This document shows, piece by piece, positions 2,468 through 56,057 of a stretch of DNA of 64,000 nt (position 1 is the first letter of the stretch; every line of letters begins with the position of its first letter). A program made the position numbers and the translations under genes. The stretch is from assembly GCF_050920415.1 (NCBI RefSeq), contig NZ_CP169309.1, one strand, 5' to 3'. The notes beneath the pieces were generated by a model. The model did not search any database, was not told the origin of the DNA, and worked only from the letters and a program-made list of their open reading frames with translations. This stretch comes from Escherichia coli (GTDB lineage Bacteria; Pseudomonadota; Gammaproteobacteria; Enterobacterales; Enterobacteriaceae).

Positions 2468-2572
2468 GGTTTTACCCTGTAAAATAAGATTTCCTATTAT
2501 ACAGGGTATTTTTATTTGATTTGTCAGTTGTCGTTAATATTCCCGATAGCAAAAAACTATCGGGAATTGTTA

Positions 2573-5134
2573 TTACACCAGACTCTTCAAGCGATAAATC
2601 CATTCCAGCGCCTGACGCGGGGTAAGTGAATCCGGGTCAAGATTTTCCAGCGCTTCGACCGCTGGCGACGTTTCTTCCGGTACTGACAGCAAAGACATTT
2701 GCGTACCATCCACTTGCGTAGCGGCGGCGTTCGGCGAAATGCTTTCCAGTTCACGCAGTTTTTGCCGTGCGCGCTTAATCACCTCTTTTGGCACGCCCGC
2801 CAGAGCAGCAACCGCCAGGCCGTAGCTTTTGCTCGCCGCGCCATCCTGCACACTGTGCATAAAGGCGATGGTGTCGCCGTGCTCCAGTGCATCGAGATGC
2901 ACGTTGGCGACGCCTTCCATTTTCTCCGGCAGTTGAGTCAGTTCAAAGTAGTGGGTAGCAAACAACGTCAACGCTTTAATCTTATTCGCCAGATTTTCAG
3001 CGCACGCCCATGCCAGCGACAGACCATCGTAAGTGGACGTTCCGCGCCCAATCTCATCCATCAACACCAGGCTGTACTCCGTGGCGTTATGCAGAATATT
3101 GGCGGTTTCGGTCATCTCCACCATAAAGGTTGAACGCCCGGATGCCAGATCGTCAGCCGCGCCCACACGGGTAAAGATACGATCGATAGGTCCAATCTCG
3201 ACTTTTTGCGCCGGTACGTAGCTGCCGATATAGGCCATCAGCGCAATCAGTGCGGTCTGGCGCATATAGGTACTTTTACCGCCCATATTCGGACCGGTGA
3301 TGATCAACATGCGACGCTGCGGCGACAGGTTCAGCGGGTTAGCGATAAACGGCTCATTCAGTACCTGTTCAACCACCGGATGGCGACCTTCGGTAATGCG
3401 AATGCCCGGTTTATCAATGAAGGTCGGGCAGGTGTAGTTCAGGGTATAGGCTCGTTCCGCCAGGTTTACCAGTACGTCGAGTTCTGCCAGTGCGCTCGCG
3501 CTCTGTTGCAACGCTTCCAGATGCGGCAACAGCAGGTCGAACAACTCTTCATAAAGCTGTTTTTCCAGTGCCAGCGCTTTACCTTTCGAGGTGAGTACTT
3601 TGTCTTCATACTCTTTTAGCTCTGGAATAATGTAGCGTTCGGCGTTTTTCAGCGTCTGACGACGCATATAGTTGATGGGTGCCAGATGGCTTTGTCCACG
3701 GCTAATCTGAATGTAATAACCATGCACCGCGTTAAAGCCGACTTTCAGCGTGTCCAGGCCGGTACGTTCACGCTCGCGAACTTCCAGACGCTCCAAATAA
3801 TCTGTCGCGCCGTCAGCCAGCGCGCGCCACTCATCCAGCTCTTCGTTATAGCCTGATGCGATAACACCACCGTCGCGTACCAGCACCGGCGGTGTGTCGA
3901 TGATTGCTCGCTCCAGCAGATCGCGCAGCTCTGCAAACTCGCCCATTTTCTCACGCAGCGCCTGTACCGGTGCACTATCGACACTTTCTAACTGCGCGCG
4001 TAGTTCTGGCAGTTGCTGGAAAGCGTGACGCATACGGGCCAGATCGCGTGGGCGAGCAGTCCGTAAAGCCAGACGTGCCAGAATACGTTCCAGGTCGCCG
4101 ACCTGACGCAGTACCGGCTGCAGCTCAGCGGTGAAATCCTGCAATGCGCCAATAGTTTGCTGGCGCTCAAGCAACACGCGGGTATCGCGCACTGGCATAT
4201 GCAGCCAGCGCTTCAGCATACGACTCCCCATCGGCGTTACAGTGCAGTCGAGCACGGAAGCCAGCGTGTTTTCCGCACCGCCCGCCAGGTTCTGGGTAAT
4301 TTCCAGGTTACGGCGCGTCGCGGCATCCATAATGATACTGTCCTGCTCACGTTCCATAGTGATAGAACGAATGTGCGGCAGAGTCGTACGTTGAGTATCT
4401 TTCGCATACTGCAACAGACAACCGGCGGCACAAAGTCCGCGCGGCGCGTTCTCGACGCCAAAACCGACCAGATCGCGAGTGCCAAATTGTAGATTCAACT
4501 GCTGGCGCGCGGTGTCGATTTCAAACTCCCACAGCGGACGACGACGCAGGCCGCGACGACCTTCAATCAGCGACATTTCAGCAAAATCTTCTGCATACAG
4601 CAGTTCCGCCGGATTAGTGCGTTGCAGTTCTGCCGCCATCGTTTCGCGGTCAGCCGGTTCGCTCAGGCGAAAACGACCGGAACTGATATCCAGCGTCGCG
4701 TAGCCGAAACCTTTACTGTCCTGCCAGATAGCCGCCAGCAGGTTGTCCTGACGCTCCTGCAACAGCGCTTCATCGCTGATGGTGCCCGGCGTAACGATAC
4801 GCACAACTTTGCGCTCAACCGGACCTTTGCTGGTCGCCGGATCGCCAATTTGTTCGCAGATGGCAACGGACTCGCCCTGATTCACCAGTTTGGCGAGGTA
4901 GTTTTCCACCGCATGGTATGGAATCCCCGCCATCGGGATCGGCTCTCCCGCGGAAGCGCCGCGTTTGGTCAGTGAAATATCCAGCAGTTGTGACGCACGT
5001 TTTGCGTCGTCATAAAACAGTTCGTAAAAGTCACCCATCCGGTAGAATAGCAGGATCTCGGGATGCTGGGCTTTCAGCTTGAGATACTGCTGCATCATGG
5101 GCGTATGGGCATCGAAATTTTCTATTGCACTCAT
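2573..5134 (-). CDS. mutS: DNA mismatch repair protein MutS
   Basis: 853-aa ORF; Walker [10 protein letters not shown]; full-length MutS architecture. Confidence 0.97.
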
Positions 5135-50437: not shown

Positions 50438-51141
50438 GACTGTTCTCCATAAGCGAACTCATGGGCCATCCGCGCCCGTCGCCAGTGGCGTTTCCAGTGC
50501 TCGGTGGTTTTGACATGATTTTTGCGTACATACTTGAAGACGTTATGCGAAAAGTCAGCGACGGAAAACGCATCACTATTCCGGCTGACAATGCCTTCCA
50601 GCGTACAGGGTTGCCCGGTTTGCGTATCCCAGGGATCGAACGCGCCGCGCGCATTGGTCAGCGCCAGAAAATCACGTTGCCAGCTTTTTTCATCATTCCC
50701 CGGCTGCGGGCCGGAGATTTCGGGAACGCAGGGGAAATCAAACAGAGCGGCGTAAAACTGCACCTCTTCCCAGCTCAGCCACATATCCTGGCAGCGAACG
50801 GCAAACAGATAAAAATCCTGCTCCAGGGCGCGATATTCAATCGAATGAACGGCATAAAGATTTTCACCAAACAACTCCAGATCGCCGAGATCGTTTTTCA
50901 GCAGTTGCCAGCGTTGGCGAATTTTATAGGTCCATGCCGATTGTGTAGGCGCGGCATGGGAACGGGCAAACACGCCGTAGCGGTTAAGGCAGTTATTTTC
51001 ACCGTCGAGTTTTTCTGTGTGCACCAATTGCGTGATGGCCTGTAAATCCTGCCAGTAATCGGTGTTAATACGGTCATCGCTGGTGGTGCCAGGGGAGAAA
51101 GGATAATGCCAGGTTCTCCCGTATTTACGTTGGGTATTCAT
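50434..51141 (-). CDS. ATP-dependent RNA-ligase-family protein (covalent nucleotidyltransferase), accessory gene
   Basis: 235-aa ORF; motif I KLDGEN (Lys44), motif III-like FGENLYAV, motif IV EGIVSR, motif V FKYVRK. Confidence 0.7.
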
Positions 51142-51361
51142 AATAATCCATTATTTTTTGTGTAATAAACGTACGCCCGCGAGGGTGCGAGTTATGGGGT
51201 TAAAAAAAATGTGAGTATCACCCGCGAAAGCGAGGGCGAAGAAAAAAGAGAGTTAACAACCTGAGCGAATGCTCAGAACCGGTTAATGGTGAATGGAAGA
51301 GTTTGGGGCGGCGAAAAGATACACCGTTTGAGATGATAAAACAACCGTTTACAGAATGAGC

Positions 51362-51389
51362 AAATAAAAAGGGAGCCGCAGCTCCCTTT
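51362..51389 (-). terminator. Rho-independent terminator after emrB
   Basis: Minus-strand GGGAGC-tgcg-GCTCCC hairpin followed by TTTTTATTT. Confidence 0.8.
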
Positions 51390-51396
51390 GACAACC

Positions 51397-52935
51397 TTAG
51401 TGCGCACCGCCTCCGCCGCCACCTGCGCCAAATGGCGGTTTAGCAAACCACACCAGCCCCAGCAGGACGAGGAATATCCCGGCTGACATCCAGAAGATCT
51501 CATTGGCGGAAATAATCAGCCCCTGATTGGTGATCTGCTGGGCAATCCAGCCTGATGCCTGTTGTTGCGTCATCCCCAGCCCTTCCAGTTGGCTGTACAT
51601 CGCCTGAGCGTTCGGGTTAAACGGGTTTACCGACTCGGTTAACTGTGCGTGGTGCATCGACTCGCGGTTAGTCCACATGGTGGTGGTGATGGATGTGCCG
51701 ATAGACCCCGCCAGCGTTCGCGTAAAGTTAGAGAGGCTCGATGCCGCCGCCAGTCGTTCCGGTGGCAAACCAGACAGCGTAATGGTGGTCAGCGGCATAA
51801 AGAAGCAGGCCACTGCGAAGCCCTGGATAAACTGCGGCCAGGCCGACGCACCAAAATCCATACCCGGTTCAAAGGTATAGGCACGCCAGTAGAAGCAGAC
51901 GGCATACATAATAAAGCTGAAGGTTACCAGCCGCCGCATATCCAGTTTATGCGCGAAGCGGCCGATAATCGGCGACAGGATCACCGGAATAATCCCTACC
52001 GGCGCAGAGGCCAAACCTGCCCAGGTCGCCGTGTAACCGTAGACCTCCTGCAACAACTGCGGCAGCAGAACAATCGCGCCGAAGTAGAGCATATACGCGA
52101 GGCTGATACACAAGCAGCCGATGGTGAAGTTGCGCGACTTAAACAACGACAGATCGACTATCGGGTTATCGTCGGTCAGCTCCCAGACAATCAGGAAGCA
52201 GATAGCCACCACCGCCACCACGGTGAGGATGATTATTTCCTGCGATGAGAACCAGTCCAGCTCTTTACCGCGGTCGAGCATAATCTGCAGGCTGCCGATA
52301 CCAATCACCAGCAGTGCCAGCCCCACGGCATCAATCCGCCGCCGTTCGGTGCGGGTTTCGCGTCCGCGCAGGGTTTGCAGTGTCATCAACACCACCGCCA
52401 CGCCAATCGGCACGTTGATGAAGAATATCCAGCCCCAGTGGTAATTATCGCTGATATAACCGCCGAGGATCGGGCCGCAAATTGGCGCGACAATCACCGT
52501 CATCGACCACAACGCCAGCGCGATCGAGCGTTTTGCTGGCGGGTAGTTATTCAGCAATAGACTTTGCGAAAGCGGGATCAACGGCCCGGCGACAATTCCC
52601 TGAATCACGCGGAAGAAGATCAGCATATTCAGGCTGCTGGAGACACCACACGCCCACGACGCAATAGCAAAGGCGATGGTCGACCAGAGGAACAGCTTCA
52701 CTTCCCCAACGCGCTTTGCCAGCCAGCCGGTAAGCGGGATCGAGATGGCATTCGCCACCCCGAAAGAAGTGATTACCCACGTTCCCTGGCTGAGCGATGA
52801 GCCCAGATTCCCGGCGATAGTGGGGATCGCCACGTTAGCAATGGTGGAGTCCAGCACCTGCATGAATGTCGCCAGTGACAGCGCAATCGTCATAATGACC
52901 AGTTGCGCGCCTTCCAGCGGTTTTTGCTGTTGCAT
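51397..52935 (-). CDS. emrB: Multidrug efflux MFS transporter EmrB (14-TMS DHA2 family)
   Basis: 512 aa from MQQQKPLEGAQLVIMTIALSLATF; C-terminal glycine run. Confidence 0.95.
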   Translation of the reverse strand: MQQQKPLEGAQLVIMTIALSLATFMQVLDSTIANVAIPTIAGNLGSSLSQGTWVITSFGVANAISIPLTGWLAKRVGEVKLFLWSTIAFAIASWACGVSSSLNMLIFFRVIQGIVAGPLIPLSQSLLLNNYPPAKRSIALALWSMTVIVAPICGPILGGYISDNYHWGWIFFINVPIGVAVVLMTLQTLRGRETRTERRRIDAVGLALLVIGIGSLQIMLDRGKELDWFSSQEIIILTVVAVVAICFLIVWELTDDNPIVDLSLFKSRNFTIGCLCISLAYMLYFGAIVLLPQLLQEVYGYTATWAGLASAPVGIIPVILSPIIGRFAHKLDMRRLVTFSFIMYAVCFYWRAYTFEPGMDFGASAWPQFIQGFAVACFFMPLTTITLSGLPPERLAAASSLSNFTRTLAGSIGTSITTTMWTNRESMHHAQLTESVNPFNPNAQAMYSQLEGLGMTQQQASGWIAQQITNQGLIISANEIFWMSAGIFLVLLGLVWFAKPPFGAGGGGGGAH

Positions 52936-52951
52936 CACACGCACCTCTGGA

Positions 52952-54124
52952 TTAGCCAGCGTTAGCTTTTACGATATCGTCGATCAGTTTATTGACAGGT
53001 GCCAGGCTGATTTCACGCGCGGTGCTTACCGCGACCGGTGTGGAACGTACTTTATTTGCCAGTACCTGACCGTCACGGTTAGTGGTATTGACGCTCACCA
53101 GCGTGGATAAACCGATACGCAGCGGGTATTGTTCCAGCTGTTTCTGGTCCAGTTCAATACGAACAGGCAGACGCTGAACGACTTTGATCCAGTTACCGGT
53201 GGCGTTTTGCGCCGGAAGCAGCGAGAACGCGCTACCTGTGCCCATATCCAGACCAACCACTTTACCGGTGTATTTCACATCATCGCCGTAAATATCGGTG
53301 GTGATGGTGACCGGCTGACCGATACGCATATTGGCAATCTGCGTCTCTTTAAAGTTGGCATCCACCCACATATTGGTGGCTGGAACGACCGCCATCAGCG
53401 GCGTCGTTGGGCTAATTTGTGCCCCAGGCTGTACCGCGCGGCGGGAGACATAACCGGTCATCGGACTGACAATACGGGTACGCTCCAGCGCCAGCCAGGC
53501 GTTACGTACTTCGGTGGCAGCCTGTTGCACGGCAGGCTGATCTTCCAGTTTAGTCCCCAGAATCATCGCCTGATTGGCATTGTATTGTTGAATGGCGACA
53601 TCCAGTTGCGCCTGGGCACTGGTCACCGCGTCGCGGGCGTGTTGCAGCTCTTCGCGACCAATCAGGTTGGCATTGCCCAGCGGCACACGGCGGTTGTAGT
53701 CGCTTTGTGCTTTCGCGAGGGCGATTTTTTGCACCTCAATATTCGCCTGCAACTGTTTGCTGTTAATCATCAGCTGGTGGGTTTGGCGCACGCTGGAAGC
53801 CAGTGCCGTTTTGGCTTTTTCAAACGCCTGGCGAGCATCTGTCGGGTCGAGAGTGACCAGCACATCGCCTTCTTTTACAAAATCGGTGTTATCGGCCCAG
53901 ACTTTCGTCACGCTGCCAGACACCTGAGACATAATTTGAATCTGATTTCCTGCCACGTATGCGTCATCGGTTTCTTCGAAATGACGCAGTACCAAAAACC
54001 AATAAATCCCTATCGCTACGGCAATAATTATAAAGAGCAAGGTGAGAAGGAGGAGCAGACGCTTACGTTTGCCGCTCTTCTTTACCGGTTGCTGCGGGGT
54101 TTGAGTCTCCGCATTTGCGCTCAT
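52952..54124 (-). CDS. emrA: Multidrug efflux periplasmic adaptor (membrane fusion protein) EmrA
   Basis: 390 aa from MSANAETQTPQQPVKK; single N-terminal TM then coiled-coil/biotinyl-like domains. Confidence 0.95.
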   Translation of the reverse strand: MSANAETQTPQQPVKKSGKRKRLLLLLTLLFIIIAVAIGIYWFLVLRHFEETDDAYVAGNQIQIMSQVSGSVTKVWADNTDFVKEGDVLVTLDPTDARQAFEKAKTALASSVRQTHQLMINSKQLQANIEVQKIALAKAQSDYNRRVPLGNANLIGREELQHARDAVTSAQAQLDVAIQQYNANQAMILGTKLEDQPAVQQAATEVRNAWLALERTRIVSPMTGYVSRRAVQPGAQISPTTPLMAVVPATNMWVDANFKETQIANMRIGQPVTITTDIYGDDVKYTGKVVGLDMGTGSAFSLLPAQNATGNWIKVVQRLPVRIELDQKQLEQYPLRIGLSTLVSVNTTNRDGQVLANKVRSTPVAVSTAREISLAPVNKLIDDIVKANAG

Positions 54125-54172
54125 ATTGTTCTCCACGATCTTCTTAACTCATCGGCTGAGCCGACCTGCTTG

Positions 54173-54203
54173 CCAAAAAGGCCAGCATGTTGCGATGCTG
54201 GCC
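54173..54203 (-). other. Hairpin with U-tract between mprA and emrA (intra-operon attenuator/partial terminator)
   Basis: GGCCAGCAT-cgcaac-ATGCTGGCC followed by CTTTTTGG on the minus strand. Confidence 0.55.
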
Positions 54204-54250
54204 AGTCATTTTTTCTTTTATAAATCTGGATTTTTGAGCGAGATGACGCG

Positions 54251-54781
54251 TTAGCTCATCGCTTCGAGAACCACACCGTCTTGTTCCATCTGGTCGAGAC
54301 GGGAGAGCAATTTGCGGGTGATTTGCTCGAGTTGATCTTTTTCTGTTGTGCTGAGCGCGGACCAGAGTTGATGCAGGCAGTTATGCTGCGGTGGTAAAAC
54401 CTCGCGCAAAAACTCGTGACCTTTTTCCGTTAATTGCAGATGCAGGCAGCGGCGATCGTTATCGCTTTCACGACGTTCGATCCAACCGCGTTTTTCCAGT
54501 TCATCGGCAATACGCGTCGCGTTGGTACGGGATGATCCAAGAGCACAACTCAATTCAGAAGGCTGAATACTGTGGTTTTCCTGAGACTCCAGCGTAATCA
54601 ACGCCATAAACAACGTCTCGTTAATCCCCTGAGCCTTCAGCATTTTATTGCGGTTCTCCAGCAGCTTGCTTTGCATGTGCATGCAAAGACGAGTCAGAAG
54701 GATCTCCTGATAAGGAAAATCTTCGTGGCGGCTGGCGCGAAATTTTAGCATTTGTTCAATGGGCGTAAACGAACTATCCAT
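54251..54781 (-). CDS. mprA: MarR-family transcriptional repressor of emrAB
   Basis: 176-aa ORF with winged-helix MarR core. Confidence 0.95.
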
Positions 54782-54871
54782 TTGGGTATGACCTCATTAA
54801 TTTCAGCCGATATAGTAACGACAGTGACAAATAAAGTAAATGTATTGTTTTAGAAAAATGATTCTTGTGGG

Positions 54872-55207
54872 TTATATAATCGCCATCACTTTCCAGGCGA
54901 GCCCATAGGCCAGCGCACTAAGCAGTGTTGGGATGATAATGCTGCGTGTTTTATAGAAACTGGCACCCAGTACCGCGAAGCCGACCAGAGTGGGCACGAA
55001 ACGGCGTGTATCGTGCATCACTTCTGGTGCGGTAGAGACAACCAGCAGAGCGCATATCGAGGCGATGCCAATGGTGTCGAGCAAAATACCTACCGCGCCA
55101 CGTTTGGTTGGGCGGGCATTACCCACACGCAGGCGCAGCGGCAAATAGCGGAAGCAATAATTCGCCGCGCCAACCAGTAACCCAAGCAGCAGAACCTCAT
55201 AGCTCAT
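54872..55207 (-). CDS. ygaH: Branched-chain amino acid (L-valine) exporter small subunit (AzlD-like)
   Basis: 111-aa membrane ORF overlapping ygaZ end. Confidence 0.9.
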
Positions 55208-55934
55208 CGGGCGCTCCTTGCCAGAATGCCTGGATTAACGCAGTGAGGCAGCCACAGACAATGCCTGCCAGAATGGCGACGGGAATAGAAAATAGCGTTA
55301 CGCCTGCAAGGGCACCAACTAACGCTGCGGTAACGCAAAGAGATTGTTTGCGCTGGAAAGAGGCGAGCAGGAAACTCATAAAGAGTGCCGGAAGCATAAA
55401 ACCTAATGCTGCTTCAACGGCGGGATATCCTTGCAGCAAGCCGCTGCCGGAGAATGCCCCTATTACCGTACCAAATACCCACGATGACCATGAACTGAAG
55501 GCAATGCCGATCATCCAGTTCTCGCTCCAGCGGCGATTATTGCGTACCAGTTTTGCGGTTGCGGCGGCAAAAACCTCATCCGTCAGGCCAAACGCCCACA
55601 GGGCAGTTTTCGATTTTTGCAGACGCTGAATAATACGGCTACGCAGTGACGGGCCATACAAAACATGGCGAACATCCATTGCCATGACGGTCAGTGCAGC
55701 AACCCACAAACTACTCCCGGCTGCCAGCATCGCGGTAATGACGAACTGGCTCGCGCCTGCATAAATGATGCAGGAGAAAAAAACGCTTTCGAGAGGAGAG
55801 AATCCCAGACGGGTCGCATTCAGACCGAACGCAAAGGCCACCGGAATATAACTAATAACAATCGGTAAACTGTCTTTGCATCCTTCCATGAAGGTCGCCG
55901 AACCAGGAGCAGGCTGTGGAGTAGGGCTTTCCAT
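55197..55934 (-). CDS. ygaZ: Branched-chain amino acid (L-valine) exporter large subunit (AzlC-like)
   Basis: 245-aa membrane ORF. Confidence 0.9.
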
Positions 55935-56057
55935 AGAGTGTACGCTTAACGATTGTTAATATTATAAATAGACTGAATGAATATCTTAACCTTATCAGAC
56001 TGATGGGCTTCTTAACACCCTTATAAGTGTAAAGCCACGAAAACGGTTGCTGATTGC

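Follow-up and report, generated by a model that had tools for sequence, protein, structure and literature searches.

A probable constitutive and leaky intrinsic terminator between mprA and emrA of Escherichia coli, and its conservation in Enterobacteriaceae

The stretch of Escherichia coli DNA analyzed here, to which we refer as the window, is 64 kb long and carries on its minus strand the gene of the repressor MprA followed by the pump genes emrA and emrB. mprA, annotated as emrR in RefSeq, lies at 54251..54781 (minus strand) and encodes a protein of 176 aa; emrA lies at 52952..54124 (minus strand) and encodes 390 aa counted from the ATG at 54124. In a match at 100% identity the gene order is proX, an MFS transporter gene, ygaZ, ygaH, emrR (mprA), emrA and emrB, all on the minus strand of the window. 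As a multidrug efflux pump, EmrAB-TolC is relevant in the clinic; capsule and virulence genes are likewise under the control of MprA/EmrR. A hairpin with a U-tract had been placed between the two genes by a first-pass annotation, in an interval (54125-54250) that turns out to be the entire 126-nt mprA-emrA intergenic region, with the flanking genes as named there.

Read in the sense of the genes, the intergenic region and the start of emrA are composed of CGCGUCAUCUCGCUCAAAAAUCCAGAUUUAU AAAAGAAAAAA UGACU GGCCAGCAU CGCAAC AUGCUGGCC UUUUUGG CAAGCAG GUCGGC UCA GCCGAU GAGUUAAGAAGAUCGU GGAG AACAAU AUG. The annotated hairpin proved exact in sequence: on the minus strand it spans 54203..54180, with the 5' arm GGCCAGCAU at 54203..54195, the loop CGCAAC at 54194..54189 and the 3' arm AUGCUGGCC at 54188..54180, and it is immediately followed by UUUUUGG (54179..54173), that is, by the U-tract UUUUU at 54179..54175 plus GG. 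The stem consists of nine perfect pairs, six of which are G-C, and closes a loop of 6 nt; the isolated hairpin has a predicted free energy of -15.5 kcal/mol, and when it is folded within a transcript that stops at the U-tract its pairs have probabilities of 0.87-1.0. These values lie within what is expected of intrinsic terminators, namely a GC-rich stem of about 5-14 bp, a loop of 3-8 nt and, on the transcribed strand, a U-run that sets in within 0-2 nt of the stem, and here UUUUU directly abuts the last stem pair. The hairpin is in sense orientation, 47 nt past the mprA stop codon and 55 nt ahead of the emrA ATG, so placed as to close the mprA mRNA, and it is the top terminator-like site returned by a pattern scan of 51000-56000 (9 pairs, 6 G-C, loop 6). 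A bidirectional terminator was considered and is not supported: on the plus strand the T-run begins 5 nt past the stem, and the 3' ends listed for MG1655 include none on the minus strand here.

Two further features flank the terminator hairpin. The first is an A-rich tract, AAAAGAAAAAA, located at 54209..54219 (minus strand), 5 nt 5' of the stem, in a region that is A-rich in nearly all orthologues; counting the following U, the tract can be read as four ARN triplets. The tract may aid termination or may act as an Hfq site of the (ARN)n type, and the combination of this tract and the U-tailed hairpin looks like a 3'-UTR module for Hfq binding. The other feature is a second hairpin, GUCGGC-UCA-GCCGAU, which lacks a U-tract and lies at 54151..54165 (minus strand), about 9 nt past the UUUUUGG tail and 16 nt before the emrA Shine-Dalgarno sequence GGAG (54131..54134, minus strand). 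It has a predicted free energy of -7.0 kcal/mol and is kept in essentially all of 77 orthologues, with 98.1% of the alignment cells paired and two pairs changed on both sides; compensatory changes include CCGGC/GCCGG in two loci of our sample (L075 and L079) and a closing G-C for G-U in another (L065). This hairpin might be a 5' stabilizer or a translation element for emrAB. The Shine-Dalgarno sequence itself sits inside a ribosome-binding block, GAUCGUGGAGA, identical in 75 of the 77 orthologues, as is expected of a translated downstream cistron.

In order to estimate how often such a pattern occurs by chance, the 64-kb window was scanned for perfect hairpins of at least 9 bp with a loop of 3-8 nt, and 30 dinucleotide shuffles served as control. 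The window contains 9 of them per strand, compared with 2.1 +/- 1.6 in the shuffles, and 3 (both strands together) that are then followed by at least 5 T in 8 nt, compared with 0.13 +/- 0.34; a chance origin of the combination of hairpin and U-run is excluded. A second terminator-like structure of the same transcription unit, AAAGGGAGC-UGCG-GCUCCCUUU plus UUAUUUGC (51360..51389, minus strand; the hairpin proper at 51389..51368), is found 8 nt past the emrB stop codon and presumably marks the end of the emr operon. Besides these two sites in the emr operon, the only terminator-like site of equal quality in the window is a perfect 9-bp hairpin on the plus strand at 2541-2565, TCCCGATAG-CAAAAAA-CTATCGGGA, which is followed by ATTGTTAT.

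Conservation was analyzed by scanning one genome per species with MprA, which yielded 80 loci of Enterobacteriaceae, including Escherichia, Salmonella, Citrobacter, Enterobacter, Klebsiella, Raoultella, Kosakonia, Leclercia, Lelliottia, Kluyvera and others. The terminator hairpin was found in all 80. Its position is also stable: among the 79 loci with emrA, the intergenic region measures 114-133 nt, except for one with an insertion of about 63 nt; the stem starts 41-52 nt past the stop codon, the exceptions being L019, which carries that insertion (107 nt), and L080 (28 nt), and 54-62 nt separate its end from the emrA ATG. Variation is almost absent from the outer eight pairs, GGCCAGCA/UGCUGGCC, and the loop is free both in sequence and in length, so that the conserved 8-nt half-sites lie 1 to 10 nt apart. 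The changes that do occur in the stem are complementary (GGCCUGCAU/AUGCAGGCC in L074; AGCC/GGCU in L075 and L079). At the ninth position of the stem, E. coli has U-A and the other Escherichia have U-G; Citrobacter sedlakii has C-G, and Klebsiella has G-C together with an additional tenth pair, A-U. In our alignment (A1) 92.4% of the cells are paired and seven pairs are changed on both sides; none of 500 shuffles reaches any of the observed measures, and controls in which the register was slid gave 13-51% paired cells, all far below the observed value. In the terminator helix, changes on both sides occur at 5 of the 10 stem pairs counted. Covariation of this kind indicates that the structure, rather than the sequence of the loop, has been conserved.

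Within E. coli, 5417 of 5426 complete genomes contain a match at 95-100% identity to a 601-nt query centered on the site, with emrR and emrA as the RefSeq annotations, so that the window is E. coli chromosome. In 2700 genomes the 86-nt core is identical, and the remaining ones show differences at 1-2 positions; the core differences that were sampled lie just 5' of the stem and none falls in it. Both queries match a median of one place per E. coli genome (the highest number being 2), always in the chromosome, so the element is not a repeat of the REP/BIME class, whose consensus its sequence does not resemble.

The site has an RNA 3' end in vivo. In the Term-seq data of Adams et al. (2021, eLife, PMC7815308; Supplementary file 1), a 3' end is reported for growth in LB to OD 0.4 at position 2811376(+) of MG1655, and the sequence printed for it is ATTTATAAAAGAAAAAATGACTGGCCAGCATCGCAACATGCTGGCCTTTTTGGCAAGCAGG, i.e. 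...GCTGGCCTTTTT|GGCAAGCAGG. With 10 nt printed downstream of the end, position 2811376 is the fifth U of the run and corresponds to 54175 of the window. The first-pass annotation had proposed 3'-end mapping as a check, naming an absence of transcript ends at this place as what would speak against it, and the published end is present. The peak is modest, with an average of 861 reads and the class 'orphan', and it was called in one of three conditions (LB OD 0.4). Supplementary file 2 of the same work lists no Rho-termination region between 2,811,000 and 2,811,599 of MG1655, absence from such a list being weak evidence. A more recent study of the sRNA UhpU (PNAS 2025, PMC12704781) names the site a Rho-independent terminator and reports that the main mprA RNA on northern blots is a ygaH'-mprA species of about 900 nt, and not the annotated 3.5-kb mprA-emrAB mRNA. 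5' RACE in that study placed the start site in codon 49 of ygaH, with a predicted transcript of 888 nt; in the window, 889 nt separate the first base of that codon (55063) from 54175, both included. The element described here is thus the same as the published one (PMC7815308, PMC12704781), with an identical Term-seq sequence and the 3' end at the fifth U, and the terminator, for which in vivo 3'-end and northern evidence already existed, adds no new biology in E. coli. What is added here is modest: the covariation over 80 loci, the weaker tail in most genera, the lack of a conserved antiterminator and the second hairpin.

The literature consistently places emrAB in MprA's own transcription unit, driven by a promoter upstream of mprA, and describes its expression as rising upon inactivation of mprA. 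A promoter scan predicted no sigma-70-like promoter in the mprA-emrA intergenic region. TTGGCA- and TATAAA-like hexamers were also inspected by hand as an internal emrA promoter and rejected, since they lack a proper partner. As emrAB belongs to MprA's unit, no intergenic promoter is predicted and the ribosome-binding block of emrA is kept as in a translated downstream cistron, the pump genes must be reached by read-through, which we infer to be the sole route to their expression. The earlier suggestion of a partial terminator therefore divides in two: the terminator is borne out by the 3' end at 54175 and by the main isoform of about 900 nt, and its partial character follows indirectly, from the place of emrAB in the MprA unit and from the lack of a predicted promoter.

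Taken together, the hairpin and its U5 tract are very probably a constitutive, leaky Rho-independent (intrinsic) terminator within the mprA-emrAB operon. RNA polymerase would start at one or more MprA-repressed promoters upstream of mprA, transcribe mprA and then encounter the GC-rich 9-bp hairpin with its U5. Most complexes would be released at U5, giving short mprA-only mRNAs that end at 54175, and a minority would read through past the second hairpin and the emrA ribosome-binding site, giving the 3.5-kb mprA-emrAB mRNA. In this way a single promoter would produce more repressor message than pump message, and the output of both would scale with promoter activity at a fixed ratio. As a consequence, the 'emrRAB operon' would mostly yield a repressor-only message, and the level of the pump would depend on read-through plus derepression.

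Two points of this interpretation, that the 3' end arises by termination rather than by trimming and that the efficiency is fixed rather than regulated, are best judged against the other readings of the same hairpin. The hairpin could be a barrier that stabilizes mRNA, in which case transcription would continue into emrAB or end diffusely, the long RNA would be cut or degraded 3' to 5' and the exonucleases would be halted at the stem, leaving a stable mprA mRNA that ends at its foot. Such a reading draws on the stem being almost invariant in the 80 loci, yet followed by a poor U-tract in most genera (UUUCUGA in 63, UGUCUGAU in 4), and on d'Aubenton-Carafa scores of about -7 to -24 in many loci; the Term-seq peak is a modest one, and trimming by a 3'-exonuclease can likewise leave a 3' end at the base of a stable hairpin. 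We nevertheless consider it unlikely as the main explanation, because in E. coli the end falls at the fifth U of an unbroken U5 abutting the stem, which is the canonical position of intrinsic termination, no Rho-termination region is listed nearby (PMC7815308) and Rho-independent termination is how the authors of PMC12704781 read the site. One role does not preclude the other, since terminator hairpins also stabilize mRNA. It is decidedly less plausible that the hairpin is a palindromic DNA operator, GGCCAGCA...TGCTGGCC, bound by a dimeric factor, perhaps MprA, that would form a roadblock or give emrAB a second control point. Both 8-nt half-sites are indeed nearly invariant in nucleotides across genera, but a spacing that varies from 1 to 10 nt would not be tolerated by a dimer of fixed geometry and is tolerated by an RNA loop, and the half-site changes in L074, L075 and L079 are complementary; variable spacing and complementary changes together favor an RNA hairpin, and an RNA 3' end maps at the adjoining U-tract. 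Of all the readings weighed, the operator is the least probable.

Between these two in probability, and still improbable, stands a regulated attenuator, in which an upstream structure, a leader peptide, a ligand or an sRNA would decide whether the terminator forms and the pump would be uncoupled from the repressor on demand; an attenuator had also been suggested in the first-pass annotation. In E. coli the last codons of mprA (GCGAUG) can pair with CAUCGC, which spans the inner part of the 5' arm and the loop, and in the nascent RNA such upstream pairing of the 5' arm gains about -5 kcal/mol. This pairing is however weak in comparison with the -15.5 kcal/mol of the terminator, and it relies on bases of the nonconserved loop; across loci, upstream pairing of the 5' arm gains a median of about 4 kcal/mol and forcing the arm free costs a median of 3.6-4 kcal/mol, with inconsistent partners, against 14-20 kcal/mol for the terminator. 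RNAalifold on 47 orthologues retains only the two hairpins and no alternative helix. One long-range helix that appears in the single-sequence minimum free energy structure (z = -2.15), between UCCAGAUUU upstream of the terminator and the region of the emrA Shine-Dalgarno sequence, is lost in that consensus, and in Klebsiella its CCAG becomes CUGG without compensation. An ORF of 21 codons on the minus strand (ATG at 54209; 54209..54144) crosses the hairpin and could be thought of as a leader peptide, MTGQHRNMLAFLASRSAQPMS, followed by a stop; it lacks a Shine-Dalgarno sequence, and other Escherichia as well as strains of E. coli have CTG, CCG or ATA in place of its ATG (which is missing from E. 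albertii, E. whittamii and E. coli Combat2C1), so that the ORF at 54144-54209 is probably meaningless. A permissive Rfam search of 53500-55000 returned matches at chance level only, the best one over the site being isrD with 17 bits against a gathering value of 37 (E = 2.7). With no conserved alternative helix, no Rfam match and an overlapping small ORF that is not conserved, the proposal of an attenuator is not supported. We infer that termination is the origin of the 3' end and that its efficiency is fixed.

The tail of the terminator is less uniform than its stem. The tail UUUUUGGC is present in five Escherichia sequences (the window and L001-L004) and in three Kosakonia-like loci. In the other 72 of the 80 loci the U-tract is interrupted, as UUUCU in 68 (63 of them UUUCUGA(C/U)) and as UGUCUGAU in four, from Citrobacter braakii, Klebsiella indica, Raoultella planticola and Enterobacter sp. 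JUb54. A d'Aubenton-Carafa-type score, whose values are meaningful only relative to one another, is +12 to +14 in Escherichia, about -7 in many Enterobacter and Salmonella loci and -8 to -24 in the UGUCU group; in some Klebsiella and Citrobacter loci a longer stem makes up for the tail. It is therefore probable that the strength of termination is not the same in all genera despite the invariant stem. Since the tail is interrupted in 72 of 80 loci and the stem is strictly kept, the conserved role of the element could be other than efficient termination; in most genera it would be either a weaker terminator or a structure whose conserved role is mainly that of a stabilizing 3' hairpin, and the stability-barrier reading draws its principal support from here. 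The weaker U-tract in most relatives is a modest comparative addition that can be tested.

A broader scenario, which we put forward tentatively and consider rather doubtful as a whole, is that of an ancient intercistronic element, common to the Enterobacteriaceae, whose termination strength has been tuned by lineage. The weak UUUCUGA (or UGUCUGA) tail would leave mprA and emrAB largely co-transcribed in most genera, and the U5-6 of Escherichia and, separately, of a few Kosakonia-like species would uncouple the repressor from the pump; the second hairpin (54165..54151) would then be a 5' stabilizer or a translation-control element of the read-through or processed emrAB mRNA. If true, this would fit an Escherichia-specific ygaH'-mprA/UhpU circuit. 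A simple link between the U5 tail and ygaH was looked for and rejected: ygaH precedes mprA in all eight U5 loci, but also in 26 loci whose tail is weak. Overall, ygaH lies directly upstream of mprA in 34 of the 80 loci, including Citrobacter, Klebsiella, Raoultella, Trabulsiella and Kosakonia (among loci L008-L079, about 90 nt upstream), so the ygaZH-mprA adjacency extends beyond Escherichia, a small qualification to the acquisition story of PMC12704781.

Partial intrinsic terminators inside operons have well-known precedents in E. coli, among them the rplL-rpoB attenuator and the T1 terminator of rpsU-dnaG. Like these, the mprA-emrA element is a hairpin with a U-tract inside an operon that would lower the expression of the distal gene relative to the proximal one under a shared promoter; unlike them, its proximal gene is the operon's own repressor, so that the terminator would bias an autoregulatory loop. 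The REP sequence of malE-malF and the stem-loops of Rhodobacter puf block 3' exonucleases after processing and have no adjoining U-tract. The mprA-emrA hairpin shares with them a stable stem-loop after the first cistron and more upstream than downstream message, but it differs in that U5 abuts the stem and that the RNA ends at the last U. The terminators of trp, of T-boxes and of riboswitches likewise lie upstream of regulated structural genes, whereas at mprA-emrA no conserved antiterminator, leader peptide or aptamer was found.

Sequence changes in this intergenic region are seen in some individual genomes. The intergenic insertion of about 63 nt mentioned above, in Enterobacteriaceae bacterium RIT714 (L019, 3072-3134), lies upstream of the terminator and contains the inverted repeat GTTGCAG...CTGCAAC; it may be a small mobile repeat. 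According to a CCCP evolution study (bioRxiv 10.1101/392977; Griffith et al., Appl Environ Microbiol 2019), six mutations arose in the mprA-emrA intergenic region of E. coli W3110, and if these fall in the hairpin or in the U-tract they would constitute genetic evidence that the terminator limits pump expression. Finally, in the urinary-tract isolate E. coli M45 (L082, NZ_CP080119.1), an IS1 at 2554-3330 is inserted exactly at the U-tract, at a point corresponding to 54172/54173 of the window, with a 9-bp target duplication, CCTTTTTGG. The terminator is intact upstream of the element, which separates it from the second hairpin and from emrA, and in this strain emrAB may have been decoupled from mprA by the IS1.
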